Below are positions 8,454-59,964 of a stretch of 64,000 bases of DNA, piece after piece. Within the stretch, counting starts at the first letter, position 1. Every line of letters starts with the position of its first letter. The stretch is from contig CBDCXW010000007.1 in assembly GCA_965223945.1 (NCBI GenBank), positions 1,502 to 65,501 on the forward strand, given 5' to 3'. The notes under the pieces were generated by a model, which saw only the letters and a program-made list of their open reading frames with translations, had not been told where the DNA came from and searched no databases. This DNA is from Dehalococcoidia bacterium. GTDB taxonomy: Bacteria > Chloroflexota > Dehalococcoidia > Lucifugimonadales > CATQGZ01. The translations under genes and the position numbers were made by a program.

Positions 8454-8482
8454 TTGACAGACCCGCACACCCGTGCTAATCT
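8454..8482 (+). promoter_or_regulatory. Sigma70 promoter with a palindromic LexA-like operator in the spacer
   Basis: TTGACA-gaccc-GCAC-accc-GTGC-TAATCT, 17-nt spacer; operator has two symmetric changes from GAAC-N4-GTTC. Confidence 0.55.
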
Positions 8483-8552
8483 TTCCCTATGCCAACGACC
8501 AGTCCCCTTCCACGCTCCCGCGCCGCAGGCGCACATACCGGCGCCGTGGGCG

Positions 8553-8675
8553 CGTCGCACTTTGTCACAGTAATGGCACTAAATGTCGCTCCAATGTCCC
8601 TCAATGTCGCGCTCATGTCGCAATCCATAAGGTAGTCCCCAAAGCTGAAAGTCCCTAAATGTCTCACAATGCCGC
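8553..8675 (+). repeat. Helically phased TGTC-core repeat array
   Basis: Cores at 8553, 8563, 8574, 8584, 8595, 8605, 8616 (spacing 10/11), then 8650, 8660, 8670. Confidence 0.75.
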
Positions 8676-9105
8676 AGATATAGAGGAGTTCGACCCCACA
8701 GACGAGCCGTCCGATGACGATTCGGTCGCCCTTACCCACAGACAGATCACCGCCCTCCCATACCTCGTCGCCTCGCCTACCGTGACGGAAGGCGCCAGGC
8801 TGGCCGGCATGTCGCGCAGGACCGTCCACCGCTGGATGGAAGACGACCACTTCCGCGTCCAGTTCGAAAGACTCAGGGACGAGGCTCTGAGCCTCGCGCA
8901 GGCCGAGTTGAAGGGCCTTACCCTCAAGGGCGCCGGCGTACTCGCCGAAATGCTCGAAGACCCGTCGTCCAACATCCGACTCCGAGCCGCGCAGATCGCA
9001 ATCTCCGCGGGCACCAAGGTCAACGAGCAGTCCAACATCCAGGAGCGCATCGAACACCTTTCCGAGGCATTCCACCTCCAACGCTCGAGGAAGCCCCTCC
9101 TGTGA
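8659..9105 (+). CDS. HTH protein resembling phage small-terminase-like (phBC6A51-type) proteins
   Basis: LTHRQITALPYLVASPTVTEGARLAGMSRRTVHRWMEDDHF HTH followed by helical IRLRAAQIAI segment. Confidence 0.7.
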   Translation: MSHNAADIEEFDPTDEPSDDDSVALTHRQITALPYLVASPTVTEGARLAGMSRRTVHRWMEDDHFRVQFERLRDEALSLAQAELKGLTLKGAGVLAEMLEDPSSNIRLRAAQIAISAGTKVNEQSNIQERIEHLSEAFHLQRSRKPLL

Positions 9106-9446
9106 AAGCCGCGCTCAAAGCCCTCGAACGCGCCCTCATCCTCGAACGCACCGAGCTCGCCCTCGCCAACGCCCTCAAAGAGCTCATGAACAAGTGGGAT
9201 CCCCCCGACGTGGAACGTGGCCCCGAACCCTCTTCCTTCGACCTCCTCGATGCCCTCCACCGAAGCAGAGTCCCATCCCTCCCGGCAGTCCCTCGCGCCA
9301 TGAGCTACATCGACCAATGCAGGTACCAGGGCGCAGCTCCCGACATGGCCAGGATCTTCCGGACGCTCCTCCCCGAAGCCCCAGTGCCCGCCTTCCTAGA
9401 GACCGACGACTCCGACCACCTCTTTCCCGACGAAAAACCCTGCTAG
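9102..9446 (+). CDS. Hypothetical protein translationally coupled to the HTH gene
   Basis: GTGA overlap; 114 aa with typical codon usage. Confidence 0.6.
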   Translation: MKAALKALERALILERTELALANALKELMNKWDPPDVERGPEPSSFDLLDALHRSRVPSLPAVPRAMSYIDQCRYQGAAPDMARIFRTLLPEAPVPAFLETDDSDHLFPDEKPC

Positions 9447-9470
9447 ACTATTACCGGCCCCATCGACAGC

Positions 9471-9540
9471 CACCCCAGCCCTCTCCCTCGACGGGACCTC
9501 CACACTACCGTCATACCGGCGAAGGCCGGTATCCAGAGGG
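9471..9540. repeat. REP cluster (CCCTCTCCC palindrome plus GTCATACCGGCGAAGGCCGGTATCCAG)
   Basis: REP at 9510-9536 is identical to copies at 6408, 41283 and 54384 (inverted). Confidence 0.8.
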
Positions 9541-9614
9541 GCGGGGACGCAGGATACGGAGGCGAGAGTGTCCCTCGGGCAACCTCCCAAATTCACGCGG
9601 GAACGGAGAGAACC

Positions 9615-11306
9615 GTGAACGACAAACCGCCCGGCAACGCCGCCGAAGAAACGGCCCTCTCGGACTTCGTTAGAGACATAGTCGCCGAGGACCTCAAGTC
9701 CAACAAGAACGGCGGCCAGGTGGTCACCAGGTTCCCACCGGAGCCCAACGGCTACCTCCACATCGGCCACGCCAAGTCCGCCTGGCTCAACTTCGGAATC
9801 GCGTCGGAGAACGGCGGCGTATGCAATCTCAGATTCGACGACACCAACCCCACCAAGGAGGATGTCGAGTACATCAACTCCATCCAGGAGGACCTCCGCT
9901 GGCTGGGCGTCGAGTGGGGGAGGGATGCGCTCTACTCCTCCGACTACTTCGACGAAATCTACGAGTACGCCGTCAAGCTGGTCAAGAAGGGAAAGGCCTA
10001 CGTCTGCGACCTCAGCGCCGGCGAGATCAGGGAGTACCGCGGGACTCTGACCGAGCCCGGACGGGACAGCCCCTACCGGGTCCGCACCGTCGAGGAGAAC
10101 CTCGACCTGCTGGCCGGCATGAAGGCCGGCGAGTTCGAGGAGGGCTCTCGCGTGCTCCGGGCAAAGATCGACATGAGCTCGGGCAACGTGAATATGAGGG
10201 ACCCCGTACTCTACCGCATACTGAAAGCCCCCCACCCCAGGACAGGCGCCGGCTGGTGCATATACCCCACCTACGACTTCGCTCACGGGCAGTCCGACTC
10301 CATCGAGGGTGTGACTCACTCCATCTGCACCCTGGAGTTCGAAGACCACAGGCCCCTCTACGACTGGCTGCTCGACGAGCTGGAGATCCACCACCCCATG
10401 CAGATCGAGTTCGCGAGGCTCAACCTGACCAACACCGTCATGAGCAAGCGAATGCTGCTGGCGCTCGTCAATGACGGCATAGTTTTCGGCTGGGACGACC
10501 CGAGGATGCCCACGCTCTCCGCGATGCGGCGCAGGGGGTATACCCCGGCAGCCATTCGGACCTTCTGTGAGAGGATCGGCGTCGCCAGGAGAGAAAATAC
10601 CATCGAGATCGCGATGCTCGAGCACTGCGTCCGCGAGGACTTGAACAGGACCGCCCAGAGGGTCATGGGTGTCCTCCAGCCACTCAAGGTCGTCATCGAG
10701 AACTACCCTGAGGGCCAGACGGAGGAGATCGAGGCGGTCAACAATCCCGAAGACCCCTCCGCCGGATCGAGGATGCTTCCCTTCTCACGCGAGCTCTACA
10801 TTGAGAGGACCGACTTCGAGGAGGACCCGCCTCCGAAGTTCTACCGGCTGGCCCCGGGCCGGGAGGTGAGGCTCCGCTACGGGTACTTCATAAGGTGCGC
10901 GTCCGTGGTAAAGAACGACGACGGCGAGATCGTGGAGCTGCGGTGCACCTACGATCCCGAGACTCGTGGAGGCCACGCGCCGGACGGCCGCAGGGTCCGA
11001 GGCACGCTCCACTGGGTCTCCGCCCCCCACTCCATCGCGGTGGAGGTCAGGCTCTTCGACCATCTCTTAGTCTCGGACGACGGATGGAATGCCGCGGACG
11101 CCGTATTCAACCCCGGCTCCCTGGAGGTACTCACCGGGTGCAAGGTCGAACCGTCTCTCGCGTCCGCCGCCCCGGGCACGCCGTACCAGTTCGAGAGGCA
11201 GGGCTACTTCTGCGTCGACTCCGTCGACTCGTCGCCCGGCGCCCCAGTCTTCAACAGGACCGTGTCGCTCAGAGACTCGTGGAAGAAGGCCCGCGGCTCC
11301 AGCTAG
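9615..11306 (+). CDS. glnS: Glutamine--tRNA ligase
   Basis: [30 protein letters not shown] and QFERQGYF motifs. Confidence 0.96.
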
Positions 11307-11398
11307 CGTCTCCATACACTCGGCCGCGATGTTGACAGCCCGCCCCGTTCTTGCAAATATGGAGTCGAGGTGCTACTGACGACGCAGGGGGTGAAGCG

Positions 11399-12136
11399 AT
11401 GGCTGTGATAGCTCTTGGCGGCCTCACCGGCGGAGGCGGGCGGCATCTCGGGCCGCTGGTAGCCCGGGAGTTGGGGGCCGACTACGTTGACAGGCTCATG
11501 TTGACCGAAGTCGCTCGCGAGGTCGGCGCCACGGTCGAGGCTCTGCACCAGCGCGAGGAACGACCTCCCACACGAGGCGAGAAGTTCGCGAGGGTGCTCC
11601 AGCGCATCCTCGAGCGTTCGGCGGCCACCGGTGTCGGCAGTGATCCCTATTTCGGTCCGGGCGTCGCCCCCTTCCTCTCCGAGGAGTACGAGAACCTGCC
11701 CCAACCGACCATCACCCGCGGCCACGAGCTCGAAGATGACAAGTACATCGAGGCCATCCGCACAGTCATCCGAGACATGGCGGCGAGTGACAACACGGTC
11801 CTCGTCGGACGAGGCGCCTACATCATCCTGCGCGACAACCCGAAGGTCCTGCGAGTCGGAGTCGTCGCCGACTTCGAGGACCGCGTTACCACCATCATGA
11901 AACGCGAGCACCTCGGACACGATGAGGCCGTGCAGGTCATCCTGGCCCGCGACCAGGCCAGGTCCCTCTACTTCCAGAGGTTCTTCGGCATAGAGCACCC
12001 TGACAGCCCGGAGCTCTACCACCTGGTGATAAACTCCAGCGCCGTCGACATGGACTACGCAACCTCCGTCGTCATCCGGGCATCGGAGGCGCTCCTGGAC
12101 GGAAGACTTCCCGCCAAGACGGGCGCAGTCGTCTGA
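11399..12136 (+). CDS. Cytidylate kinase-like family protein
   Basis: VIALGGLTGGGGR, VLVGRGA, D..R..Y...FFG and YHLVINS motifs. Confidence 0.85.
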   Translation: MAVIALGGLTGGGGRHLGPLVARELGADYVDRLMLTEVAREVGATVEALHQREERPPTRGEKFARVLQRILERSAATGVGSDPYFGPGVAPFLSEEYENLPQPTITRGHELEDDKYIEAIRTVIRDMAASDNTVLVGRGAYIILRDNPKVLRVGVVADFEDRVTTIMKREHLGHDEAVQVILARDQARSLYFQRFFGIEHPDSPELYHLVINSSAVDMDYATSVVIRASEALLDGRLPAKTGAVV

Positions 12137-12229
12137 CCGGATTCGAGTGGGCTTGACCCTCCCGGCGTCCGAATTGGCCTGATCCCACGCACCACTAGCG
12201 GGTCCTGCACGCCTGCGAAAGGCGAGAGC

Positions 12230-12910
12230 GTGTCCCAGACCGCCGTGCTGATTGTCGAGGACGAAGAAAACCTCCTGGAAGCTCTCAAGTACAGCTTCGA
12301 GCGGGCCGGCTATAACGTCCTGTCTGCCAGCGACGGCGAGGCCGCGGTCACCGTGGCCCGCAGGCTGAAGCCCGACCTCGTCCTGTTGGATGTCATGCTG
12401 CCCAACCTCGACGGCTTCGAGGTCTGTCGTATCCTGCGGCTGGAGACCGACGCTCCTATTCTGATGCTCACGGCCAGGGGTGAGGAGGCCGACCGCATCA
12501 CAGGCCTCGAACTCGGCGCCGACGACTACGTAACCAAGCCCTTCAGCATGCGGGAGCTGCTGGTCAGAGTCCGCAATATCCTCAAGCGTACAGAGCCCCC
12601 GAGGACACGCGAGAAGCTTACGGCAGACGGGCTTGAGTTGGACCTTAACAGCTACATGGCCACCCTCGACGGCAAGGCGCTCAAACTGAGGCCGAGGGAA
12701 TTCGCGCTGCTCGCCATGCTCATAGGCAACAGAGGCCGCGCCCTCACCCGGTTGCAGATCCTCGAACACCTATGGGGTTATGACTATATAGGTGACACTC
12801 GCACCGTCGACGTGCACGTCCGATGGATTCGAGAAAAGATAGAGACAGACCCCTCGAAACCGAAGATGATCACGACGGTCCGCGGAGTCGGCTACAGGTT
12901 CGACGGATGA
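12230..12910 (+). CDS. phoP: OmpR/PhoB-family response regulator (phosphate regulon)
   Basis: Receiver LLDVMLP and GADDYVTKPF; wHTH RTVDVHVRWIREK; pst operon context. Confidence 0.88.
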   Translation: MSQTAVLIVEDEENLLEALKYSFERAGYNVLSASDGEAAVTVARRLKPDLVLLDVMLPNLDGFEVCRILRLETDAPILMLTARGEEADRITGLELGADDYVTKPFSMRELLVRVRNILKRTEPPRTREKLTADGLELDLNSYMATLDGKALKLRPREFALLAMLIGNRGRALTRLQILEHLWGYDYIGDTRTVDVHVRWIREKIETDPSKPKMITTVRGVGYRFDG

Positions 12911-14268
12911 GGCTGCCGGTACACTGGCGCGTCGTTCTCACCCTGGCAGCCCTGATGGTGGCCGGTCTGGTCGTACTGAGCATCTACCTCACCGCACAGG
13001 GGCATTCGGGCAGGCTGATCGGGGCCATCTGGCTCTGGGGAGCAGCGATCACCGCTGCCGCCGCGGCTACGGCTTACTACTCGATCGGCAGGATCGCGCG
13101 TTCGGTGGAGTCGGTGGTCGATGGGGCGCGCCGGCTGGCCAGGGGCGACTTCGAGCACCGGATACCTGCGGTCCAGACATCTGAGGCCAGAGAGATGGCC
13201 GACTCATTCAATACGATGGCGGCTACTATCCGAAACGTGGTCCGGGACCTGTCGGGCGAGCGGAACAAGCTGTCGGCGGTACTGAACACGATGGCGGACG
13301 GAGTCGTTGTACTCGAACCCAACGGCAGGGTCGCCCTGATGAATCAGGCGGCCCAGTGGCTGCTGGATATACGGACCATCGAACCGGTCGGCATCCGCCT
13401 GGTAGAGCAGGTGCGTGACAGCGAGCTCATCGAAGTCGTCACCGGGGCCCTCGAGTCTGGCCAGCTGCGGCACAATGAGCTCGAGATGCTGCACAGAGGG
13501 TCGTTCGTCAGCGTCATAGCCACACCGTTGAGCGGTGACGGCTCCGAGGGCGTCCTGTTGATGCTCCACGACCTGTCTAACCTGCGGCAGATCGAGACGA
13601 CCCGCAGGGAGTTCGTCAGCAACGTGTCCCACGAGCTTCGCAGCCCCCTCGCTTCCATAAAGGCCCTGACCGAGTCCCTCCAGGACGGCGCCTTCGATGA
13701 GCCCGCGGTCGCGGCGGACTTCATGGAGCGTATCCAGAAGGAAGTGACCCGCATGGGCAGCCTCGTCGACGATCTGCTCGCCCTCTCACGCCTGGAGAGC
13801 GGACAGACGCCGCTCAATCTCGGCCCCCTCGATCTCAGGGCTCTCACGGACGATCTTGTGGACTCGTACTCAACCCACTCGGACGGGGTGAGAATCGAGC
13901 AGACCATGCCCGCGGATCTTCCCCTGGTGACAGGCGATGAAGGGATGGTACGCCAGGTTCTGGTCAATCTGCTCGAGAACGCCCTCAAGTTCACATCAGA
14001 GGGCGGACGGATCGGTGTCGGTGCCGTGGCCGGCGGCAAGTTCGTAGAGGTCAGGGTCAAGGACACCGGGGCCGGCATCCCGCCGGAGCATCTGCCCCAC
14101 GTCTTCGAGCGCTTCTACAAGGTCGACCGTGCCCGCCGAGATGGAGGGACAGGCCTGGGCCTCGCCATCGTAAAGCACATCGTGCAGGTGCACGGAGGCG
14201 ACGTCAGCGTCGAAAGCGAAGAGGGGGCCGGGAGTACGTTTGCCTTCACGCTTTCCCGCGCCTTCTGA
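12907..14268 (+). CDS. phoR: Phosphate sensor histidine kinase (HAMP-PAS-HisKA-HATPase)
   Basis: [31 protein letters not shown] and [12 protein letters not shown]. Confidence 0.88.
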
Positions 14269-14344
14269 AGAACACCCGTCTTCCCGTCCACCCGTCCTGA
14301 GGGGCCTCTCTCCCGGTGCCCAGCCATTTGACGGGCCCGCCAGA

Positions 14345-14382
14345 TTTAACAAGACTTTAAACCCCGGCGCGCTCATCTTAAA
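14345..14382 (+). promoter_or_regulatory. Candidate PHO box
   Basis: TTTAAC (14345) and TTTAAA (14356) 11 bp apart, plus CTTAAA at 14377, upstream of pstC. Confidence 0.55.
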
Positions 14383-14503
14383 GCTCAGCACGCTATGCTG
14401 TCGCCATGTTGTGTCGCCCCCACGTGTCATGAGCCTCAAGATGGGACGTTCTCGTCACATCGCTGCGGAGCCGAGACAAGCCTCAGCCACCGGCGAGGTG
14501 TCT

Positions 14504-15397
14504 ATGTTCAGACGCTCCCGGGTCAGAAACCTGGAGGGGCAAGCCGCCCGCATCTTCTTCCTCCTCTGCGCGGTGCTGTCCATCTTCACGACTGTCGGGA
14601 TAGTCGCCAGCCTGTTCAGCCAGGCACTTGCGTTCTTCGGGGAAGTCTCCGTCTGGGAGTTCCTCACGGGGACACGGTGGTCGCCCATCCTCAAGCCGAG
14701 CTCGTTCGGTGTCCTGCCTCTGGTGGGAGGGACGCTGCTCGTGGCCCTTCTGGCTGCGGTGGTCGCCGTCCCCGTCGGCCTCGGGACCGCGATATTCCTG
14801 GCCGAGTACGCCCCCGACTCCATCCGCCGGATCGTGAAGCCGACCCTGGAGGTACTTGCCGGTATCCCAACCGTCGTCTACGGGTACTTTGCCCTCACCT
14901 TCGTTACGCCCCTGATTCAGATCATCTTCCCCGATATGATCGTCTTCAACGCCCTCAGCGCCGGCATGGTCATGGGCATCATGATAATCCCGATGGTCTC
15001 CTCCCTGAGCGAAGACGCGATGGTGGCCGTGCCGCGCTCCCTCCGTCAGGCCGCATACGCCCTGGGAGCGACCAGGCTTGAGGTGAGCCTGCGAGTCGTC
15101 GTGCCTGCTGCGCTCTCGGGCATCGTGGCCTCCTTCATACTGGCTATGTCGAGGGCTATCGGCGAGACGATGCTTGTGACCATCGCGGCTGGCGCGACGC
15201 CGAACCTGACCTGGAACCCTCTTGAGAGTGTCCAGGCGATGACGGCGTACATCGTGCAGGTCAGCCTCGGAGAAGCCGCGCACGGCTCCTTGGAATACAA
15301 CACGATCTTCGCCGTCGGCCTCCTGCTCTTCATGATGACCCTCCTGATGAGCTTGTTGGGCCAGTGGGTCGTCCGCCGGTGGCGTGAGGAGTATTGA
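14504..15397 (+). CDS. pstC: Phosphate ABC transporter permease
   Basis: [25 protein letters not shown]. Confidence 0.93.
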
Positions 15398-16278: not shown

Positions 16279-16279
16279 C

Positions 16280-28998: not shown

Positions 28999-29271
28999 GG
29001 CGTCCACGGCGACGGTACGAAGGAGGATGGGTTCCCGCCGTCAACGGTGTGGGGATTGTCCCGGATACCCGGTCCACTAGGCAGCGCTGCACTGTTGGTC
29101 TCTGCCCATCGAGCGCGTGACACGGCTGCAAGATGAGGCTCTCACGCGTACCCACTTTTAACTTCCAGGTATCGAGTATGCGGCTCGGGGTTCGTAGCCT
29201 TCGCCGAAAACTGCTGAAACTGTCCACTTTCTTACAATCTCATAGCTGGAGGCTCCCACTCAGACGTCAGA

Positions 29272-29325
29272 TACTGGACACAAACTGAACAGAATCTTCG
29301 ACACTTACTGGACATTTACTGGACA
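29272..29325 (-). repeat. Helically phased TGTCCAGTA repeat array
   Basis: Plus strand TACTGGACA (29272), AACTGAACA (29283), TCTTCGACA (29295), TACTGGACA (29306), TACTGGACA (29317). Confidence 0.7.
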
Positions 29326-29402
29326 GTCCGGGAGGCAGGCTCCCGTATGGAGTACGGATCGGGCTCTGCACTGCAATGCTGGAAGGGGATCGGGACATAA
29401 GA

Positions 29403-29433
29403 ACATTAAGCGGACAGAAGTTCTGTTTGTCAA
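29403..29433 (-). promoter_or_regulatory. Sigma70 promoter with LexA-like box
   Basis: Minus strand TTGACA-aaca-GAAC-ttct-GTCC-g-CTTAATGT; the -10 match is weak. Confidence 0.6.
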
Positions 29434-29436: not shown

Positions 29437-29650
29437 ATGATAGTCGGAGAGTTCGCCGCGATGCAGGTCATCGAGATAGACGCGGCCCTCATCCGGCGGG
29501 CGATCGGAGTGTGCCGGCGTAGCCGGATCTCCTATTGGGACGCGCTCGTCGTCGCCGCAGCCAAGCGGGCCCGCTGCAGCCGCATACTGTCCGAGGTCCT
29601 GGACCCGGGACAGTCCTACGACGGGGTAGTCGTCGTCAATCCCTTCCAGT
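29437..29650 (+). pseudogene. PIN-domain (VapC) toxin remnant, C-terminal half
   Basis: ISYWDALVVAAAKRARCSRILSE...GQSYDGVVVVNPF; N-terminal DTN motif missing and no nearby stop. Confidence 0.75.
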
Positions 29651-29664
29651 GCCTTCCTCCTCAA

Positions 29665-30900
29665 TCAAGCGGCGTGGCGCAACCTCAACGCCTCATTACG
29701 CAGCGCCTTCACCCTGCCCGCCACGTTGCCGACGCGCTCGAGCACCTCGTCGAGAGTGCCGGACAGGTCGAGTGTCGCGACCTCCAGCCGCTTGCAGGAG
29801 TGCCGCACATGGTATGTCGCAGGCTCCCTCTCCCCCTTCGCGTAGACCAGCAGCCCGCCCGGCAGATCAAGCGCGGTGGCATACGCAAGCAGCTGGTACA
29901 GATCGGCGTTAGAGGCACGGTCGTCAGTGAGGTCCTTGTACTTCGCATCGCCCACGAACACGCATTCCCTGCCTTCCCACCAGGTGAGATCAGGTTCAAG
30001 CTTCACTCGACTTGCCTTGGCCAAGTAGATCCGGCGGCTCCCCGTGAGTTGCTTGTCGGAACAGAACAGGCTCGCTGAGACGCCAAGCGACTCCCGGAGC
30101 GCCACCGTTACGAACTCCTGGAACACGACGTTCATGTTCATCAGGAACCCGGAAGCACGCAGATCCCCGCGCCCAGACTCGAACGCGCCGTGTCGAAGGA
30201 TGAGCCGCGACAGCGCCACCACGTCGGCGTAGTGCTCGTTCAGCCGGTCGAACGGGACCTCCGGCACGTTGTCCGGCGGGAACTCCACGAAAGACACGTT
30301 GTCCAGCATCCCGGCAATCCAGCCCAGGCCCCTGCGCGCGCCATGGGAGCGCAGCTGCATCATGCCCAACCGCCCGACCGCCGCCTTCACCAGCCGGTTT
30401 GGCCGGACGTCGTCGGTGAACTCGTCGTAGCGCACCTCGACCGGCAGAGGGACGCCGAACCTGCGCCGCAGCTGCTCGTCGAACCGGATGCGCCCACGCA
30501 CGGTGTACAGCGCCTCCTCCTCAGTGAGATAACCGTGGAGCAGCCCGCGCGAGAAGGCCCGCCGCGCGGCCGCTCCCAGCGCCAGCGCCAACGCATCGGG
30601 CAGCGCCGCGTGCTCCTCGAAGTCGAACAGCCGCTTCTCCTGGAGCTTGTACGCCCCAATCGCGTAGCACGCGAGCGAGAGCAGCTTCGGGATGCCGATC
30701 TTGGGCTGTATGAGCACGGACAGGCCGCCAATCTCGACGGCGCCGACAGTAGAGCCGGGCTTCAGTACGTAGCTACTGCTTTCGCTGGCGGCCGGCGTGA
30801 TGGCGAGCGACGGAATCTCGCTCCGCAAGGCATCACGCTCAGCCACCGAAAGCTGAAGCGGCCCGCTCTCCTCGTATTCTTGTAGGTCAATTCGACGCAT
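29665..30900 (-). CDS. mcrC: McrC-family restriction endonuclease subunit
   Basis: MNVVFQEFV, LEPDL, VGDAKYK, ADLYQLLAYA (PD-(D/E)xK nuclease). Confidence 0.9.
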   Translation of the reverse strand: MRRIDLQEYEESGPLQLSVAERDALRSEIPSLAITPAASESSSYVLKPGSTVGAVEIGGLSVLIQPKIGIPKLLSLACYAIGAYKLQEKRLFDFEEHAALPDALALALGAAARRAFSRGLLHGYLTEEEALYTVRGRIRFDEQLRRRFGVPLPVEVRYDEFTDDVRPNRLVKAAVGRLGMMQLRSHGARRGLGWIAGMLDNVSFVEFPPDNVPEVPFDRLNEHYADVVALSRLILRHGAFESGRGDLRASGFLMNMNVVFQEFVTVALRESLGVSASLFCSDKQLTGSRRIYLAKASRVKLEPDLTWWEGRECVFVGDAKYKDLTDDRASNADLYQLLAYATALDLPGGLLVYAKGEREPATYHVRHSCKRLEVATLDLSGTLDEVLERVGNVAGRVKALRNEALRLRHAA

Positions 30901-32234
30901 CACCCGTCAGTGTTCTCTGCGTCACTATCGCCAATGATCCAATAGTGGTTCGGCCTGCGGTCCATGTCAGCCCTGTTTTCGCACGCCTCGAAAGCCTCTC
31001 CGTTGATCACCGCTACCAGGTGCATTCTCACCCGCGCTATGAATCGCGGGTTGGTCTCTGCAAGTTGACGCAGCGTGGGCCTCCCATCTTTTGGGAGCGT
31101 GACGCGCTTCAGACCTGAGGCCCCGAAGGCCGCGTGCCAGTTGCGCCAGCGGGCTGAGATGTTGGCCTGGGCCGCACCTCCCGCAGCCTCTATGCGGCTG
31201 GACGCTTCCTCCCTGCTGATGTTTGTCAGTCGGCTCAGGCCGTCCACGATGCAGTTGAGAGGGGCTGCGCTGTCCATTAGCCTATCCAGGTCGAACTTGC
31301 CGCGGCTGTCGTCCTCTCCGAAGCGGCGCTCCTCGATGTACGGCAGGACGCTGTGCTTCCAGATGCGGCGGACTGAATCCTCGTCGAGGTTCTCCTTCAT
31401 GAAATAGCTCGGCCCGATCGCGGCGTGACGGTCGGCCTCCAGCAGCTCATTGACCTGCTCAACCACGTCGGCCAGCCACTCCATATCATCGTGCGTGTTC
31501 GCCTCCAGCCAGCGCCGGAGCACGCCTTTGACCGGCTCGTCATCCGGGTGGAACTCCACGAAGTAGAAGCGGCGGCGCAGTGCCAGGTCCACCAGAGCGA
31601 TGGAGCGGTCGGCGGTGTTCATCGTCCCGATGATGTACAGATTGTCGGGCAGAGAGAAGGGCTCGTCCGAGTATTGGAGAAGTATCTTCTCGTCGCGGTA
31701 CTCCAGCAGGAAGTACAGCTCCCCTAACACCTTGGCTAGGCTGCCCCGGTTGATCTCGTCGATGACGAGAAAGTGCTTGGCATCCGGCTCCGCCCGGGCG
31801 CGCTTGGTCGCCCGCAACAGCGGTCCGTCCCTCATCTCGAATCCGGGCCGTCCATCCACCAGCGTAGGGCGGAAGCCCTGCACGAAGTCCTCGTAGGCGT
31901 AGGAGGGGTGTAGCTGCACCAGCGTAACCCGCTCCTCCGACCCCGCGAGATGCTTCGCGAGTTTCAGCGCGACGTATGTCTTCCCAGTGCCGGGCGGACC
32001 CTGGAAGATGACCTGGAGCTTTTCATCCAGCAGGGACTCGATCTCCTCCAGAAAGTCGACTGGGAGGTGTGACCCGTTGGCGAGCGCTTGCAGGGAAGTC
32101 TGTGGGTGTGGTCGGGGGTCTTCCACATTCGTCGCTTCGCGGCCGTGGTAGAGTGCCCAAACCACGGACTGCGCGTCAAGACGATGGCGCAAGGTCAGCT
32201 CACGCTCCAACGCTTCTTCAATGAACCTGTCTAG

Positions 32235-32382
32235 GAGCCTGTCCGAGGATTCGTTCCGGGAGACGAAACCCGCCACGCAATAACCTGCTTACAGCAATCT
32301 GGACCTTGTCGTGGAGTAATTAGCATCTTTACACTCCACTAATGACGCATATCGTTTAGGACATTGTTTCTCGGACAGACTC
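32235..32382. mobile_element. 148-bp non-autonomous MITE
   Basis: Terminal IRs GAGCCTGTCCGAG / CTCGGACAGACTC (12/13 match); CTAG duplicated at 32231-32234 and 32383-32386. Confidence 0.85.
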
Positions 32383-32664: not shown

Positions 32665-33861
32665 GGATGCTCTGAATAAGTCCCGGTGGTTTGCGGGATA
32701 GTAACATAGGGCCAAGGCCTGAAGACGTGGGAGGCGAGGCAATGAACCAGCCGACGTTTGCGGACTTGGACTACGAGAGCAAGAAGCGAAAGACTCGCAG
32801 GGGGAAGTTCCTTGAGCGCATGGATGGACTGATCCCGTGGGAAGAGTTGGAAGAGCGCATCCGACCGTTCTATCCCAATGCTGGCCGAGGTCGGCGTCCC
32901 TACGAGTTGTCGGCGATGCTTCGCATACACTGCGTGCAGTTGTTCTACAACCTGAGCGACCCTGGGATGGAGGACATGCTCTACGAGGTCGAATCGGTGA
33001 GGCGGTTCGTAGGGCTGAGACTGCCTGGGCCGCTGCCGGACGAGACGACGATTCTGAACTTCCGCCACCTGCTGGAAGAGCATGCGTTAGGCTCGGGTCT
33101 GTTCGAGGAGATCAACCGCTATCTGGAGTCCAAGGGTCTCCGTCTTCAGGAGGGGACGATAGTGGACGCGAGCATCATAGCGGCGCCCTCATCGACGAAG
33201 AATCGGGCTAAAGAGCGCGACCCCGAGATGCACCAGACGAAGAAGGGTAACGAGTGGCACTTCGGGATGAAGGTGCACATCGGTGTGGACTCGCAGACGG
33301 GAGTGGTGCACAGCATGACCACGACATCTGCGAACGTGCATGACCTGACTGAGTTGCCCCGGTTGCTGCACGGTGGGGAGTCTCAGGTGTGGGGAGATGC
33401 TGGGTATCAGGGAGTTGACAAGAGGCCGGGCAACCGGGGCTTGGATGTGGAGTGGCAGGTCGCGATGAGGCCCGGCCAGCGTCGGAAGCTGGAGCCTGAG
33501 AGTCCTGAGGCGGTGTCGGAGAAGCGCAAAGCGTCGGTCAGAGCTAAGGTGGAGCATCCGTTCCTGTACATCAAGCGGCACTTCGGCTACGCCAAGGTCC
33601 GCTACAGGGGACTGTCCAAGAACACGCAGCGGCTGATGACGCTGCTGGGGTTTGCCAACTTGATGAGGGCCGAACAGTACCTGGCGGCGTGAAACCTTGT
33701 ATAAGTGCGCCCAAAATCAGGCCTAACGGCGGCGAAACGCCCTGTCAGGGCCGGTTGTAGGCCGAGATTAACCCCCACCACGGCGCCATAAGGCAATTCA
33801 ACGCCCCCAAAACCACTCCGGTCAACTCGGCCCAGCCTGAAGCCGATTGTTCAGAGCATCC
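32665..33861 (+). mobile_element. IS5-family insertion sequence, 1197 bp, copy 1
   Basis: IRs GGATGCTCTGAA / TTCAGAGCATCC; CTAG target duplication. Confidence 0.95.
32742..33692 (+). CDS. IS5-family DDE transposase
   Basis: PDETTILNFRH, IVDASII, WHFGMKVH, GDAGY, RAKVEHPF. Confidence 0.95.
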   Translation: MNQPTFADLDYESKKRKTRRGKFLERMDGLIPWEELEERIRPFYPNAGRGRRPYELSAMLRIHCVQLFYNLSDPGMEDMLYEVESVRRFVGLRLPGPLPDETTILNFRHLLEEHALGSGLFEEINRYLESKGLRLQEGTIVDASIIAAPSSTKNRAKERDPEMHQTKKGNEWHFGMKVHIGVDSQTGVVHSMTTTSANVHDLTELPRLLHGGESQVWGDAGYQGVDKRPGNRGLDVEWQVAMRPGQRRKLEPESPEAVSEKRKASVRAKVEHPFLYIKRHFGYAKVRYRGLSKNTQRLMTLLGFANLMRAEQYLAA

Positions 33862-34896
33862 CTAGGGGACTTATCGACCCAGTCACGGAGCTTCTTTTGT
33901 TGAACGCTGTAGATGAGATTGCCACCGATTCCGCTCTTCACCAGACCGGTCCAGTCACGGTCACCTCTAAGCACGGCTTCTCGCGCCGTTGCGAGCTTTC
34001 GACCTATCTCAACTTTGTAGTCGATCTCCTCGCTCTCCAGTCGTCCAGTGTTGATGTACGCTTGGGCGCGCCTGACGAACTCATCCCAAGGGTCGGACGG
34101 CTTCGGGTCCCACTGGCTGCGGATGTCGTCCTCGTAGAGATGGATACCAACTCCATACTTGGCCTCTAAGTGTGGTCGGATCTGCCCCAAGTCGCGGTCA
34201 ACATCGTTTGTCTTCTGCTCGACGACGTTCGCGAATGTGCTGGCAATCATCTTCTTGTGTTCGACGTTGACTATCCTCTCAAAGGTATCGGGAAAGACAA
34301 GGTGAAGTATTGATTCCCGTAGTGCGCGGTTGGCTCCTTCAACCTCATAGGCGAATCTCTTGAATTCCCATGGATCATCAAGTAGGCGCTTGTGTTCACT
34401 CGAGCTTTTCTCCTTCCATTGCTTGGCAAACGCGATAAGAAACCCGAGGTTGGCTGAGCGGTTGGTGTGGTAAAGCCCTGTGCCAATAAGGCCGCTCTTG
34501 AGGCCCGCAACAAGTTCTGGAGGAATCTCTACGCCAGGGGCTCCGGTGAGCACTCTTTCAACCTGTTCCTGCTTGTTTGAAGGCTCATGGGGAATTAGGA
34601 GATTGATGTAGAACACCTCGGCCATGAGTTGGTGGATCTCCGGCGGACTATTTGCCAGCATGGACTCCAACCTCTGGAAGAAGGCGCTACCACCCTGGAT
34701 AGACAGTCTGTGGAGCTCCCCTAACCACCGACTCCTCCAGATGGCCTTGCCCGGCGTAAAGAGCGAATCGTCGGTCCGCAGCGCGCAATCAACCCACTTC
34801 TGCGCAGCCTCGTAAACCTTCTCTACGCCGTATCCCGTCTTCCTGCTACCCATAGTTTCTCCTTCACCCTTATTCGCAAATATCGCCGCAAGCAAA

Positions 34897-41468: not shown

Positions 41469-41497
41469 TTGACAAACCGAACATAAGTCCGCATAGT
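41469..41497 (+). promoter_or_regulatory. Sigma70 promoter with LexA-like box
   Basis: TTGACA-aacc-GAAC-ataa-GTCC-g-CATAGT, 17-nt spacer. Confidence 0.65.
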
Positions 41498-41545
41498 GGA
41501 AAGAGTCACCCAGTTCGCCGAAGCCCTCACCCGGGCAAATACGGA

Positions 41546-41713
41546 ATGAGACAGTATGAGACAAAATGAAGCAATTTCACGGAAATCGCGGGCCCGCCCC
41601 GAACAAACCGGCCCGGATTAGCTACGAATCAAGTGTCTCACAGTCGTCGCAAACCGTCTCGAAACCGTCTGTTTACGTCTCACAAGTGTCTCTTGCGCGT
41701 CTCACGGTGTCTC
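41546..41713. repeat. Helically phased GAGACA / GTCTC repeat arrays
   Basis: ATGAGACA at 41546 and 41556, ATGAAGCA at 41566; GTC(T/G)(C/G) at 41635, 41646, 41656, 41667, 41677, 41688, 41699, 41709. Confidence 0.85.
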
Positions 41714-41726
41714 GCCGGAGCCGCCC

Positions 41727-52994: not shown

Positions 52995-53166
52995 GTTTCC
53001 CTCCCTTTGTCGTCTGATGAATGCCCGGTCGATTCTATCAGCACAGGGCCGCGCCTGGGTATCCGGCGGGCGTCGTCACCCTCACCCCAGCCCTCTCCCG
53101 TCGAGGGACCTTTGCGTAGCCTACCGGACGAGGCGACGTCGGGAGTTGCAAACGACACCACCCTAG

Positions 53167-54363: not shown

Positions 54364-54552
54364 CTAGCTAAGCCCCCACCCCTCTGGATACCGGCCTTCG
54401 CCGGTATGACGGTTGTGCAAAGGTCTCCTTTCGCCGGTATGACGGTTGTGTGGTGAAGGGCGCTCTCACCCTCACCCCAGCCCTCTCCCGTCGAGGGAGA
54501 GGGGGCGGGCACCCCTCGCCCCGGTCCTCTTCCCGTCAGGAGAGAGGGGGCT

Positions 54553-55788
54553 CTAACCGTCAGGGAGGCCAAAGTGGACGAGCACCCTGGGCTTGGGCGG
54601 CGGAGGGTCTGGGCCGTTGTCGAGGTGGTCGGGGGGTTGGTCGGCGGCGGCGATGAGGGCGAGCCTCAGCTTCTCCTTGTGGTCCATGGCCCCCATGTAG
54701 CCCACCCTGGCCGTGGCCTTGTCGCTGTATATGTAGACGAGGGCGTTGTAGCCGTAGGTGTGCCGGCCGAAGGAGTCGTCGTCTGGGGGATCGGGGACCC
54801 GACAGCTCGGGCAGGGATCGTAGGGCTGGCAGGTATCGTGGTCGGAGTGGACGGCGGCCCTCTGAGCCTCAATCTGGTCGACTTTGTAGTCCAAGACGGC
54901 CTGGTTGGCGGCGCTCTTGGTCTCGTCGTCTCCGAATATGTGTACGAGGGCTTTGTCGCCGTAGCGGTCGCGTCGGTAGTCCTCTTCGCCGTAGCTGTCG
55001 AAGTCGTAGGTGTGGTCTTCGGGATACTCGAAGTACTTCCACTCCGGCTTCCGCGGCGTCTTCCAGGGCGTGGCCGCGGACACCGTGTCGTGGTCGGAAG
55101 CGGGCTGGCGCGCGGCCGGCTGCGGCGCGGGCACGCAGGGTGTCTGGTCGGAGGAAAGGCTCACGAGCCTATCGGCGGCGTCCATCCTCTGGTGGGTCTT
55201 GAAGCCGGTGAGGACGCCGCGCATGACGTCGGCGTAGAAGCGGACGATGTCCCTGCCGTCGTTGGTCTCCTGCCGGACGATCTCATCGAGGGAGGTTCCC
55301 ACGTCGGCGGCGCCCACGGCGCCGGTGTGTAGGGGAGCGAGGGTGAGCAGGGGAGCGAGGGATGGGTTCCCGCCTTCGCGGGAACGACGGTCCGGGCCGC
55401 GGGAACGACGGGGGGTGCTGTCTTTGGCGAGGGCTCGCGCCATCTTGGGGTCGAGCCTGGCGAGTTGCTTTCCGGTTTCGTTCCTGTGGTGATGGTTGGC
55501 TCCTTCGATCTCCCCCATCATGACGGAGAAGAGGAAGCTGATGACGCGGTCTCCGTCGTCGGTCTCGTCGCGGACGACGTCGGCGAAGGAGCTGTCCTGT
55601 TGGAGGATGATGAGCTGCTTCGCGGCGTCGACGCGGTGGTGGACCCTGGCACCTTCGAAGTCTCCCTCCATGGTGGAGAGGAAGAACCGGACGATGAGCC
55701 TTCCGCCCTGGGTCTTCTCGCGGACGATGTCAGCGAGGGAGGGAGCAGGGGCGTGGGGTAGTGGTGCTGTCTGGGCTTCAGGGAACAT
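54553..55788 (-). CDS. Hypothetical protein with three copies of a small-terminase-like helical module
   Basis: SLADIVREKTQGGRLIVRFFLSTMEG..HHRVDAAKQL / SFADVVRDETDDGDRVISFLFSVMMG..HHRNETGKQL / SLDEIVRQETNDGRDIVRFYADVMRG..HQRMDAADRL; ATG 7 nt after TATAAT. Confidence 0.7.
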   Translation of the reverse strand: MFPEAQTAPLPHAPAPSLADIVREKTQGGRLIVRFFLSTMEGDFEGARVHHRVDAAKQLIILQQDSSFADVVRDETDDGDRVISFLFSVMMGEIEGANHHHRNETGKQLARLDPKMARALAKDSTPRRSRGPDRRSREGGNPSLAPLLTLAPLHTGAVGAADVGTSLDEIVRQETNDGRDIVRFYADVMRGVLTGFKTHQRMDAADRLVSLSSDQTPCVPAPQPAARQPASDHDTVSAATPWKTPRKPEWKYFEYPEDHTYDFDSYGEEDYRRDRYGDKALVHIFGDDETKSAANQAVLDYKVDQIEAQRAAVHSDHDTCQPYDPCPSCRVPDPPDDDSFGRHTYGYNALVYIYSDKATARVGYMGAMDHKEKLRLALIAAADQPPDHLDNGPDPPPPKPRVLVHFGLPDG

Positions 55789-55814
55789 AAGTTCCATTAT
55801 AGCGGATCTGTCAA
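55782..55814 (-). promoter_or_regulatory. Promoter (-10 TATAAT) with a perfect LexA-type box over the start codon
   Basis: Minus strand TTGACAGATCCGC-TATAAT-GGAACTTATGTTCC; TTGACA is only 7 nt from the -10. Confidence 0.7.
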
Positions 55815-56030
55815 GGGGGGGCGATGTCTGAACTGTGATTCGTGTGATGGACGTGATGGGGATGATGGGGGACATCCTCACCCCTGTGGATACCCGGCAA
55901 GGGGTAGGCGGGTTTAAAACGCCCCTACGACGTGATGTCTGATAGCCACTTTCGTACCAACGACGGGGGTGGGAATCCGGGGGTAACAGTTCAGTGTTGG
56001 TGAGAAATGCAGGAATCGACCTGTCCTGTT

Positions 56031-56062
56031 GTCTTTCTGAGGAGCCCGGCGACGAAGAATCT
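56031..56062. repeat. GTC(A/T)TTC..GAATCT-type REP
   Basis: GTCTTTCTGAGGAGCCCGGCGACGAAGAATCT; related inverted copy at ~58443-58480. Confidence 0.55.
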
Positions 56063-56211
56063 AAGACCTCATCGGCCTGTTCAACCTCGCCGCCGAGATG
56101 GAACTGCTTCACATCCTACTGCCTGCTGTCGGGGAACTGGGGGCCGTTGAGCGACAGATCGTTTGACGGTAGTAAACTTAGACAGCATCGCAAGTGGAAC
56201 GCTTCCCCGGG

Positions 56212-58193
56212 TCACTGATCGCAGAACCCCAGCCCTGTAAGCCGCTTCAATCTTTCACGCAATGCCGTCGGGACACATCCTGTCAAACCCTCGTTCCCCA
56301 CCAGAAGCAACTCCTTCAACTCTTCAAGAGCCTGCAACTCCGATGGCAACTCGCCACGCAAGCCGTTTGAGGTCAGCATCAAGTGAGTCACTCGGCCACT
56401 TTCGTGGTTCACGACCACTCCCTGCCATCTCCGCATGCTGACATCGCTAATCCAATTCTGACTACGCCTCCATTCAGTCCCACCTGTCGCATCGAACAGT
56501 GCAGCCAATGCGGCGCGGTCTTCCGAAGACTCATTCGCAGGCATTGGATAGCCACAATTCTTGTCAAAGTCCCGATTCTCAACTACCTCCAAAGCCGCAA
56601 AAAAGATGCACATGGGGTAATGCGGTTGCGCAGAGGAAAGTTCCCATCGTGATAGAACCATTCTCCGTCTAATGCTACGGCACCCGTTCTATACCCTTCT
56701 TTCGGGCTAAGGAACTGCTCAGCTTTAAGGCCTAAGGCACGAAGAGCTGAGACTGTGGTGCCCGTAGAAGACGGGCTGCCAGCCTCCCGTACTATAAGAA
56801 GGTACCCGGGCTCAGGGGTATAGGGTGTCTGGGAGTAAGGGCGGTAGAGATTCGCAAAATCTTCCACACCCCCGATGAAGTGGCTCATAATGGCGTTGAA
56901 GTTGTCGAACCACCGCTCGGCGGCCTCCCTCTCGCTTCCCGCGTCTCCAACAATCTCGTAAACCTGGGTCGGAAAGCTCTCAACAGTCCCATCAGGCGAC
57001 TTAATTTGAGACATGAAGAAAAGATTTCGCCGGCCAAATTCAGTAACGGTAAAACTGCCAAGCTTTCGCAGTGCTTCAAGGTCACGCTTGTACAGCATTT
57101 CAAAATCGTCAGCATCATTTTCCATAAAACTTCTTATAAGTATTCCCTCGCCATCTGCCTTTGCAAGATAAGCAAAAGTCTCCAGCATCCCCCTGTGAAC
57201 GTGACGTTGGTCGGCTACGATGGGTTCGTAATTATCGACAACTTTATCCACAGTATCATAAGCCTTCCCATAACAGGACACGCATACACCCTTATAAATC
57301 CCTAAATCGTCTAGGATTCTATCCAGGCTGTCAACTTCCCAGTTGATTACATGCTTTCCGTCGGCTTTTTTCTCAATGTCAATTGCGTTCATCAGAAGCG
57401 GGATGGCCTGGACGGATGCCAGCTTGACGTCTGAAGGCCAGTTGTTTGGGCTGTATTTGCTTGCCAGAAAACTTTCATTACTGAAAAGCCTGCTGTCAGC
57501 CCAGTCCAGAACGTTCTGCTCGTCCGGGCTCAGGCCGTCGCCGATGAAATCGAGGCCCGCCGGATAGCTGGAGACGGCCTCGACCAGCAGCGGGGAATAG
57601 CCTGCCAGAGCGGGGTCGACCGACGGCGTGGGCACGGGAGTGTTCGTGGGAGTGGGGGTAGGCGTCGGCGTGGACGTGGGGAGTGGAGTGGCGGTGGGTA
57701 CCGGAGTCTCCGTTGCCGTGGGAACGGGGGTGTTCGTGGCGGTTGCCGTGTGGGTGGCTGTGGGGACCGCGGTGCCGGTCGCCCTCGGGACGGGCGTCGA
57801 AGCGGTCGTGGGAGCCTTCGTTGCCGTGGAAACGGGACTGGGTGTCTCCGTGGCCGTGGGGGACGACGTTGGAGTGTCCGTGGGGACCGGCGCTAGCGTG
57901 GGCGTGCGAGTCGAGGTGGGCGTGGGAGTCGGAGCCTGCGCTGGGGTGGGCGGCTGCGTGGAAGTTGGAGTCGGTGAGTGAGCCGGTGCGACCTCCACTG
58001 CGACTGCCATTACAGGCGTAACCGTGGGAGCGGAAGCCGGGGCTTTCAGGGCTGCGCTTGCCGGAGCGGTCGGCGCGGAGAGAGGCGTGTCGGTGGGCGC
58101 AGGGGCTGGCGCACCAGTCTGGTCGTCCCCGCAGGCGACGACGGCCAGCATGATGATCGCTGTCAATGCAAGGGCGAGAGGCCTCACGTACAC
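56212..58193 (-). pseudogene. Lipoprotein with Pro/Thr-rich stalk, low-GC middle domain and C-terminal LRR cap; frameshift near 56600-56620
   Basis: Lipobox VVACG; (PT)n linker; downstream frame has DRAALAALFDATGG..W..W.GV..RVTHL.L..NGLRGELPSEL; GTG start with GGAGG RBS. Confidence 0.7.
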
Positions 58194-58541
58194 GCCTCCA
58201 TTCTCACGAGGCTCTGGTTGGGCTCCTTTACCGGGATTCCCCATATTGGCAGTCTTCAGGCTCAGAGGCCAGCCTAAATGAGATGGTAGTATCATAGTCA
58301 GGTCCTGCAAGGCCAGTCAGTCTCCAGTCTATACAATAAGGGATGCGTTTCTTGTCGTGAACCATGCTTCTTGTCCATCTTTGTCGTCTTCGGGCCCCGC
58401 CAATGGGGTGAAAGCGCATTGAAGACAAGCTGACTCCCCCCTAGATTCCTCCCTCCGCTGGCGCTGCGTTCGGAATGACAATTCGGGGGTCCTCACGATT
58501 CGAACCATGGAGACTGAACAGTACGGGGAGTGGGTTCCGGC

Positions 58542-58570
58542 TTGACAGGACGTACATGCGTTCTTATAAT
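58542..58570 (+). promoter_or_regulatory. Consensus sigma70 promoter with LexA-like box, upstream of the terminase
   Basis: TTGACA-ggac-GTAC-atgc-GTTC-t-TATAAT, exact consensus hexamers, 17-nt spacer. Confidence 0.75.
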
Positions 58571-58641
58571 GGATGCGAGAGGGACGGACCCCGAGGGGCT
58601 GCAGCATGCCCCGAAACCGAAGTTGGGATGCATCTCAACAC

Positions 58642-59964
58642 ATGTCCGACCACCTTTCGACCCGCCGGCCCGAGGGGCCCACGGACCCCGTCAGCTTCGT
58701 GGAGGAGACCCTCGGAGAGGAACCCCACCGCAAGCAGACCGACATCCTGAGCGCAGTCGCCCGGTCCCGCCGGGTCTCCGTCGTCGGATGCCACGGCTCG
58801 GGCAAGGACTGGGCCGCCGCAAGAGCCGTCCTCTGGTGGCTCCACTCACACTCCCCCGCCAAGGCCATAGTCACCGGCCCGACCACGCGCCAAGTCGACG
58901 ACATCTTGTGGAGGGAGATCAGGACTGCCCACGGCCACGCCGCACACCGCCTGCGGGGCCGCGTCTTCCGGACCTCCCGGTACGAGATCGACGACCAGAC
59001 CTTCGCCATCGGATTCTCCACCAGCTCCCCGTACAACCTACAGGGCTTCCACTCCCCCAACCTGATGGTCGTCGTCACCGAGGCCCACGCCGTCCCTGGG
59101 ACCGACATCGACGCCCTCAGGCGCCTCAACCCCGCCCTGACCCTCATGACCGGCAACCCCCTCGTGTCGGCCGGACCCTTCTACGACTCCCACCACTCGA
59201 AGCGGGCGATGTACGACACCGTGCGGATCGGCGCGGGCGACATCCCCAACCTCACCCGCCTCGCCGTGCCCGGCATGGTCGCCGCGGAGCACGTCGCCGA
59301 CCGCAAAACCGAATGGGGCCGGAGCGACGCCATGTACGTCGGCGGCGTGCTCGGCAGGTTCCCGGACAACCTCAACGACGCCGTCGTACGCCTCCGCGAC
59401 GCGACCGGCGCAGCCGAGAGGAGCCTCCAGCCAGAGGGAGAGGTCGTCGTCGCGTGCGACGTATCCCGCTTCGGACAGGCGAAGACCGTCGTCGTCAGGC
59501 GGCAGGGCCCGGTCGCCAGGATCGTCTGGAGAGTGCGAGGCCGCGACACCATGAGCATCGCCGAGTTCCTCGAGTCTTACTGCGACAGGGAGAGGGTCGA
59601 CAGCCTCGTAGTCGACGACTCCGGCGTGGGCGGAGGGGTCGTCGACAGGCTCAAGCAGCTCCGACTCCCCCACACCAGGCTCGTGCCCTTCGTCGGCGGC
59701 AAGAAGGCCAGGAATCCCGACCGCTTCGCAAACCTGATCACCGAGGCCTGGTTCGCCATGGGGAGGAGGTACGAGGAGGGAACGCTCGACACCGACGACG
59801 ACCCCGCCCTCATCGCCCAGGTATCCACCCGGAGGTGCCACCATCCGCGCGGCGGGGCTATGGCTCTCGAGAGCAAGGACGGCAAGCGCGATTCGCCCGA
59901 CGAGGCCGACGCCCTCGCCATGACCTTCGCGGTGTCCAGAGGAGGCTTCAAGATATGGATCTGA
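58642..59964 (+). CDS. Phage terminase large subunit-like protein (orphan)
   Basis: Walker A VVGCHGSGKD, variant Walker B VVVTEAH, motif III TGNP, RNase-H-like ACDVSRFG / VVDDSGVGGG / SPDEADAL; start approximate. Confidence 0.85.
   Translation: MSDHLSTRRPEGPTDPVSFVEETLGEEPHRKQTDILSAVARSRRVSVVGCHGSGKDWAAARAVLWWLHSHSPAKAIVTGPTTRQVDDILWREIRTAHGHAAHRLRGRVFRTSRYEIDDQTFAIGFSTSSPYNLQGFHSPNLMVVVTEAHAVPGTDIDALRRLNPALTLMTGNPLVSAGPFYDSHHSKRAMYDTVRIGAGDIPNLTRLAVPGMVAAEHVADRKTEWGRSDAMYVGGVLGRFPDNLNDAVVRLRDATGAAERSLQPEGEVVVACDVSRFGQAKTVVVRRQGPVARIVWRVRGRDTMSIAEFLESYCDRERVDSLVVDDSGVGGGVVDRLKQLRLPHTRLVPFVGGKKARNPDRFANLITEAWFAMGRRYEEGTLDTDDDPALIAQVSTRRCHHPRGGAMALESKDGKRDSPDEADALAMTFAVSRGGFKIWI

Follow-up and report, generated by a model that had tools for sequence, protein, structure and literature searches.

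Scattered phage head genes and gene-less copies of a small-terminase leader: a candidate SOS-driven DNA-packaging system in Dehalococcoidia

Introduction

In headful phages such as P22 and SPP1 the pac sites lie in or near terS, the gene of the small terminase (TerS). The defective phage PBSX of Bacillus subtilis, encoded by one compact tailed locus, is induced by DNA damage and packs host DNA; what we describe here is alike in damage induction and host-DNA packing, as proposed, and unlike in that PBSX is compact and tailed. [quoted passage not shown] We analysed a 64-kb stretch (the window; positions 1502-65501 of contig C7) of a 4.02-Mb genome, G000, which is in 8 contigs, has 63% GC and is 96% complete. 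From its sequence, the window appears to hold dispersed parts of a phage head module, conserved and without a tail, together with gene-less copies of the terS leader.

Several described systems share features with this arrangement. Like the GTAs RcGTA, CcGTA, DsGTA, VSH-1 and BaGTA, it has head genes that seem to be vertically kept and selected, no replication genes nearby, split loci and host regulation, the last predicted from LexA-type boxes at the head operons and at lexA, recA and imuB-dnaE2. Staphylococcus aureus pathogenicity islands (SaPIs) and other phage-inducible chromosomal islands (PICIs), together with lateral transduction, resemble the system proposed here in an SOS-induced terS and in packaging from chromosomal pac-like sites, as outlined in parts of PMC9006064. 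Capsid-forming PICIs (cf-PICIs) resemble it in having head and packaging genes without a tail and borrow tails, as sketched in part of bioRxiv 10.1101/2025.02.11.637232. Our literature search, which subscription journals lay outside, gave no description of this element or packaging system. We propose, tentatively and at somewhat less than an even chance, that the parts make up a domesticated, head-only, GTA-like packaging system, driven by the SOS response and equipped with amplified pac-like sites.

Results

Gene-less elements that copy a terS leader

The full layout is seen at one locus of the window (gene calls come from a dicodon model built for this analysis):

8454..8482 (+), sigma70-type promoter with a LexA-type box, GCAC-N4-GTGC, between -35 and -10, and an ATG 6-7 nt past the -10; called from sequence and the genome-wide motif
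8563..8658 (+), terS leader, with TGTC units spaced at 10-11 bp followed by AAAGCTG (a CAGCTAC variant), running into the terS start
8659..9105 (+), small terminase-like protein with a helix-turn-helix (HTH) and a helical hairpin, one of five full paralogs
9102..9446 (+), partner gene of 114 aa, which follows most terS copies in several families

Most SOS-type promoters of G000 lead not into genes such as this one but into non-coding elements. Hidden Markov models (HMMs) identified 87 non-redundant elements, about one per 46 kb (52 of type B and 35 of type A), a number that is a lower bound, an Infernal model giving at least 68 type-B matches. A promoter lies within 330 bp of 67 of the 87, and one overlaps a confident gene. 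Type-B elements run in the order promoter, ATG or GTG (6-7 nt past the -10 in 35 of 37 promoters), TGTY array, CAGCTAC/T, short inverted arm and A/T tract; in type A the short arm comes first, followed by AGCTAC and then the array. Among the three array loci of the window, that at 8.5 kb is the leader with its gene, that at 29.3 kb is of type B and that at 41.6 kb of type A:

29141..29433 (-), gene-less type-B element: promoter and box 29433-29405, 11-bp TGTCCAG array about 29325-29270, AGCTAT 29247, inverted GGACA arm 29225-29211, right end of a miniature inverted-repeat transposable element (MITE) 29158-29141, left end lost
41469..41720 (+), gene-less type-A element: promoter and box, GAGACA arm 41548, conserved core, AGCTAC 41620, TGTCTC array 41634-41715

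The first-pass annotation had reported the arrays at these places with a 10.5-bp period. They are present, and such arrays exceed chance genome-wide (96 three-unit arrays at 10-11 bp, against 1-5 at five control spacings); the period had to be corrected to 11 bp, since 212 of 238 gaps are 10 or 11 and the mean is 10.9. Type-B elements are copies of the terS leader, sharing its promoter, TGTC array and AGCTAC and carrying an inverted arm that corresponds to the first terS codons, and 36 of 51 match a G000 terS leader best. The same leader layout of array, AGCT, Shine-Dalgarno sequence and ATG is found at all five G000 terS genes and at the terS of G002, a congener (other G-numbers denote relatives or genomes of the same order). 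In 40 of 76 elements the left and the right arm agree in their box variant, against a mean of 13 and a maximum of 24 in shuffles, the families not being independent.

The junction between array and neighbour at the 41469 element recurs in contigs of sequencing runs X3, X5 and X7, and no clear empty-site allele was seen in the contigs of four runs. RNA runs contained no more than 0.07-0.12 of the sequence words. The type-B promoter at 29433 abuts what looks by eye like the 3' half of a PIN-type gene (+, 29437-29664), with the junction at the -35 box.

A structured RNA or a leader peptide, induced by the SOS response, is a very improbable product of the elements. The strong promoter, the ATG or GTG just past it and inverted arms that could pair might suggest one. 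Against it, gain and loss of 11-bp units breaks any reading frame. Structured RNA was rejected as a candidate: folding was no better than in shuffles (median z -0.3 and -0.5), and Rfam gave no match save an unrelated tRNA (20 loci).

The promoters and their box

All the promoter strings reported at first pass are in place, at 8454 (+), 29433 (-), 41469 (+) and 58542 (+), as is the TATAAT at 55801 (-). The claim of one shared design holds for four loci and fails at 55.8 kb, where TTGACA stands 7 bp before TATAAT and the box lies downstream of the -10, GAAC-N4-GTTC spanning the start codon of the 55788 gene. Co-occurrence of the motifs is above chance: GAAC follows TTGACA at an offset of 4 in 40 cases and of 5 in 20, other offsets giving 1-9. 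A relaxed genome-wide scan found 102 promoters; under the same definition the reversed genome gave 3. Perfect GAAC-N4-GTTC, which we take to be the Chloroflexi LexA box, our literature search having given no paper on it, occurs in 8 of the 102, the commonest variant being GAAC-N4-GTCC (35).

The same box type stands at both lexA and recA of G000, with two AGAACAGATGTAT upstream of lexA and one box copy upstream of recA, and the full promoter design stands upstream of an IMS-family gene and dnaE2 (imuB-dnaE2). Because it is present at these genes, the box of the promoters is probably that of LexA. A periodic repeat ending TTCAGACA lies just before several cassette promoters (window 8425-8453 and 55850-55825; also in G002 and G025); it has 27 copies in G000, 15 of them with TTGAC no more than 25 bp away.

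Head genes elsewhere in the genome and in relatives

As the first-pass annotation had stated, the window has no portal, capsid or tail gene (0 matches among 47 other window genes scanned). The search that it had called for in the rest of the genome located single-copy protease, capsid and portal genes on contig C4, with the same promoter type. There a protease-capsid pair adjoins rplY behind the same LexA-type promoter design, and 24 kb away lie an XRE gene, a zinc-finger gene, terS, its partner, a promoter, insertion sequence (IS) insertions, the large terminase gene terL and the portal gene. The head genes and terminases of G000 are scattered among housekeeping genes, with three copies of the large terminase (TerL) and five full terS-like genes.

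Conservation in relatives was also borne out, with capsid homologs in 13 and TerL in 9 of 41 genomes (counts include G000); three capsid matches at 53-54% lie in tailed prophages (G011, G031 and G040). Head genes adjoin rplY in four genomes of three families (G000, G002, G023 and G024). Phrog_2 matches 104 of 201 genomes of the order, weak matches included. With a simple, crude Nei-Gojobori estimator, applied to high-GC sequences with no host tree, dN/dS was 0.07-0.27 for capsid, 0.11-0.35 for portal, 0.20-0.45 for TerL and 0.24-0.38 for rplY. The head genes thereby resemble those of GTAs: they are kept vertically, and purifying selection acts on them in different families of the order. None of the neck and tail genes known from G004, G023 and G031 has a homolog in the 96% complete G000. 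In G004 a fuller module (L050, C1:750000-769999) has head-tail adaptor, neck, tail-completion and tube-like genes, and is likely close to the ancestral prophage.

The terminases

Two further genes and a promoter of the window belong to the terminase complement:

58542..58570 (+), terL promoter whose LexA-type box reads GTAC-N4-GTTC; the C3 copy and the native operon share the design
58642..59964 (+), intact large terminase, one of three copies (89% to the C3 copy, 70% to the C4 copy)
54553..55801 (-), protein of 411 aa with helical repeats and no HTH, its start codon overlapped by a LexA-type box; six full paralogs

The identification of 8659 as TerS-like was upheld by PHROG TerS families (best E 3e-8), with weak support from its fold: the predicted structure has a predicted local distance difference test score (pLDDT) of 83, and its top PDB matches, the TerS proteins of phBC6A51, PaP3 and NV1, have weak E values (0.013-0.4). 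Its 114-aa partner has 0 Pfam/PHROG matches, and the G002 homolog no useful Atlas match. The gene at 58642 encodes TerL as had been proposed (phrog_2, E 2e-27); its sequence gave no match in the PDB. Walker A GKD together with Walker B TEA in TerL looks like a swap of the usual Thr/Asp pair.

For 55788, which had also been called TerS-like, gene position in a relative and a repeat motif speak for the name, and Pfam/PHROG and the 8659 profile against it, so that the protein may be called TerS-like by position and repeat motif and not by profile. A C3 paralog lies directly upstream of terL, and in a set of 13 proteins an HMM of the family matches the products of each of the 12 genes that stand upstream of a TerL gene in G025, with E from 2e-12 to 6e-8. 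The family lacks an HTH, as does the TerS of GTAs according to passages of PMC11841831. In G000 it comprises the six full paralogs, one broken and two split relatives, with dN/dS of 0.27-0.87 by the same estimator. An ordinary TerS was rejected as an identity for 55788: it had 0 Pfam/PHROG matches, hhalign against the 8659 profile gave a probability of 0.05, and there was no viral fold and no Atlas match.

In the closed genome G025, 12 scattered cassettes (L254-L265) consist of promoter, small helical gene and TerL. The small gene encodes a helical protein of about 300 aa and overlaps a TerL of another family, whose copies are 62-99% identical, and one portal was found against the 12 cassettes. 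This terminase pair behaves like a mobile element. In several relatives terS-like genes are multi-copy and scattered, mostly with the promoter and a partner of about 100 aa.

The terS genes diverge fast (dN/dS 0.55-1.15, same crude estimator), which would also suit elements that serve as decoys or activator sites, whether for a phage late activator, as a TerS sponge in defence, or as a SaPI-like means of redirecting the terminase of a helper phage. Parts of PMC9006064 describe an SOS-induced PICI TerS that redirects helper phages to pseudo-pac sites, passages of PMC3753634 describe Ltr activators that bind direct repeats upstream of terS, and tailed prophages with a related capsid are at hand in G011, G031 and G040. 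Nevertheless we consider any of these roles improbable: unlike Ltr sites, the arrays are placed downstream of the promoter and reach into terS codons, and the host's own capsid and portal are conserved.

Spread of the elements

The elements appear to form a genome-wide mobile family, with 87 members here and at least 167 in the congener, which the first-pass annotation did not contain. Some copies lie inside a MITE of 330-430 bp with an 18-bp inverted repeat and a 9-10-bp target duplication, and two inside a second MITE type with an 8-bp duplication. An 18-bp end of the first type adjoins 24 of the 87 elements, and four adjoin the second type; 59 have no such end. Target duplications of 8-10 bp flank 8 of 13 end pairs. 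MITE ends lie 12-13 bp before the -35 hexamer in 11 of 38 cases in G000 and 18 of 91 in other genomes. The first MITE type is common in Dehalococcoidia without element cargo, many MITEs measuring 130-450 bp, and its autonomous partner is a 1.18-kb DDE_Tnp_1 IS with a 10-bp target duplication and the same preference for positions 12-13 bp upstream of -35 boxes (L277:2501-3681; L290, L303, L315). The autonomous transposase was not found in G000; nor was a p-MULT (UPF0236) transposase, in a search whose control was also silent. At C1:124390-124821 of G000 a MITE-borne type-B element lies in the recA promoter region, where part of the LexA-type box of recA has been duplicated by the insertion.

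These findings bring in the main rival to a packaging system, namely that the elements are selfish hitch-hikers: the terS leader would be an operator for a TerS-like or other HTH protein, and a strong promoter cassette, captured by MITEs or repeats like repetitive extragenic palindromes (REPs), would have spread with no packaging role, the head genes persisting for another reason or decaying slowly. The MITE ends, their fixed distance from the -35, the target duplications, the cargo-free MITEs with their DDE_Tnp_1 element and the broken portal of G000 (see Discussion) all favour it. On the other side, the majority of elements have no MITE end nearby and the G002 family has no terminal inverted repeat (TIR) in the 40 copies read; divergent element families, and six host families, all retain the -35, the box, the -10, the 11-bp phase and AGCTAC; and independent expansions of terS, of terL and of terS-terL cassettes point to terminase loci, not to one cargo. 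We regard the hitch-hiker explanation as rather unlikely.

The orientation of the elements raises another alternative. The elements face a same-strand downstream gene in 75 of 87 cases (p 3e-12 against 50:50), a hairpin plus T4 terminator was found within 200 nt in 0 of 87, and one copy sits, as noted, in the recA promoter region, so they might act as mobile SOS promoters, rewiring the damage response by transcription into host genes or by titration of LexA, with the arrays as passengers. Such a role seems quite improbable, given that the downstream genes are mixed metabolic genes, that oriented insertion before host promoters would be expected to leave the elements facing this way, and that the promoter is no better conserved than the arrays and the AGCTAC core.

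Elements in other genomes

In G002 one 18-bp box/-10 string, nearly that of the box of the G002 capsid operon, has 111 matches (0 in the reversed control), and of the 67 model matches listed, 56 are separated by more than 450 bp from every one of the 99 listed sites compared, which indicates a further family. The total is at least 167 elements, with a median gap of 13 kb among the 155 with positions. The 40 G002 copies read start with TTGAC and four variable bases followed by the invariant box, and all 40 match G002's own terS leader best. An apparent strand bias in G002 was discarded as a listing artefact (53 forward, 58 reverse). G014 and G023 have the same element design. Expansions (at least 7 matches, 19 candidates scored in each genome) occur in 15 of 141 genomes of the order, in six families. 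In G015 a third family (L157-L184, L267) combines an SOS promoter with an 11-bp GCGACG array and its own conserved tail, in a different layout, and an orphan TerL stands there behind the same promoter type.

Neighbouring genes

A split tyrosine integrase lies at the window start (355-1636). A McrBC-like pair (PF10117, AAA_5) occupies 29665-32276 and 33822-34853, interrupted upstream by an IS5-type transposase.

Discussion

The system would work as follows. LexA would repress all these promoters, and RecA-driven cleavage would switch them on together. A ring-forming TerS may bind one TGTY box per helical turn, with two inverted arms around the AGCTAC core, and the leader copies would serve, after damage, as chromosome-wide start sites at which TerS loads TerL on host DNA. 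TerL might then cut near the core and fill proheads made from the single portal/protease/capsid locus, and the resulting GTA-like particles would have to borrow a tail or take a route that needs none. In G000 the stop codon in the portal gene would disable prohead filling unless a helper supplied portal. The leaders, for their part, would have been carried about by promoter-seeking MITEs and other repeats, and this in several lineages independently, as the MITE-borne copies partly bear out.

We favour pac-like sites because the amplified unit is the region where headful-phage pac sites lie, because a layout of two arms and one box per turn suits a TerS ring, because the elements of a genome go with the terS paralogs of that genome, and because leader, terS and terL, which are needed per packaging start, are multiplied, whereas portal and capsid, needed per cell, are not. 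The position at the terS start and the two arms fit a pac-type layout, the cut being presumed by analogy. The domesticated, damage-inducible packaging apparatus that was first proposed has held up in part, in its box, its head genes, their conservation and its arrays, the last now read as terS-leader copies; arrays as pac sites, particles and transfer stay at the level of proposal.

A number of observations weigh against a packaging role. Four-unit TGTC arrays occur at 58 viral loci, many of them, among the matches listed and by our reading of N-termini, in replication-initiator-like open reading frames or before HTH genes; because of these non-pac contexts, TGTC arrays are not pac-specific. 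GTAs are described in passages of PMC11841831 as needing no pac site and having a TerS without a DNA-binding domain, and the Ltr sites cited above offer another role for repeats near terS. The box is absent from uvrA and uvrB of G000. No terS of the 8659 family adjoins terL in G004, G023 or G024, and a search for phages carrying such a terS gave only two weak viral loci. TerL is present in all 15 expanded genomes, a co-occurrence confounded by kinship and genome size, and also in G004, G007, G016, G024 and G025, which have no such elements. Its Walker motifs are atypical in all eight homologs compared (GSGKD, where found, and TEA). IS insertions part the native terL-portal operon from its promoter, and neither a head-tail connector (PF05135) nor a tape measure (PF10145) was found in G000. 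The portal gene itself has a TAG at codon 278, identical in a 2,229-bp contig of the best-matching run, X1, possibly the source sample, and short or frameshifted portals are all that is seen among the 5 members of the 90% cluster to which the G000 portal belongs and in a 96% relative. The G023 portal is frameshifted. G000 accordingly has no complete structural set, that is, intact portal plus tail. Portal decay in the G000 sub-lineage is possible, since its own cluster is short or frameshifted while the cluster at 91% identity, of 86 members, is full-length (414 aa).

A bolder version of the packaging hypothesis, which we think doubtful, is that Dehalococcoidia of the SAR202 type have addressable, SOS-triggered genome packaging, with one capsid/portal locus to which terminase cassettes attend, 100-200 sequence-specific start sites that moved through the chromosome as a class of mobile element in their own right, and tail-less particles. 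Each TerS paralog would have its cognate site family, and the sites would be the packaging counterpart of DNA uptake sequences. If this lineage does pack its DNA with a DNA-binding TerS and multiplied leaders, genome-wide transduction would have arisen by a new route in a marine group that is abundant and uncultured; the ends of packaged DNA would then be expected at the elements, and the case bears on GTA origins and cargo bias. Even if the elements are selfish, there remain 90-170 LexA-box promoter elements that derive from a terminase gene. Their independent expansion took place in six host families or more, and as a repeat class not described before they would distort predictions of SOS regulons.

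By analogy, the system may work like a GTA or a PICI-type transduction system. We do not file it as a GTA because it has no tail, has an HTH-bearing TerS and is known here from genes alone. In place of the GTA pattern of a TerS without DNA-binding domain and no start site, G000 and its congener have the HTH-bearing 8659 protein and 90-170 leader copies; G000 is without a tail, terS and terL are multi-copy, and transfer is predicted from genes. In contrast to SaPIs and PICIs, there is no island or prophage context and the host keeps its own capsid genes, and where those islands use chance pseudo-pac sites, whole cassettes of promoter and leader are here amplified genome-wide. None of the copies read lies in a compact island of the kind that marks a cf-PICI or PICI, in which attachment (att) sites enclose genes for integrase, replication and packaging; cf-PICIs, in the relevant part of the preprint cited above, are compact self-packaging mobile islands, whereas the genes here are scattered and G000 has no detectable head-tail connector. 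The mode of spread recalls TnGBS/ISLre2/ISKra4 and p-MULT 3/4, which likewise insert at a fixed distance upstream of the -35 with target duplications (15-17 bp before -35 boxes for p-MULT elements, according to parts of PMC3942029), and departs from p-MULT in that the autonomous partner is DDE_Tnp_1 and most elements have no MITE ends. Finally, Ltr/RinA repeats are, as passages of PMC3753634 have it, likewise direct repeats before terS, placed upstream of the promoter and beside the activator gene, whereas the arrays described here are found downstream of a LexA-type promoter and run on, inverted, into terS.

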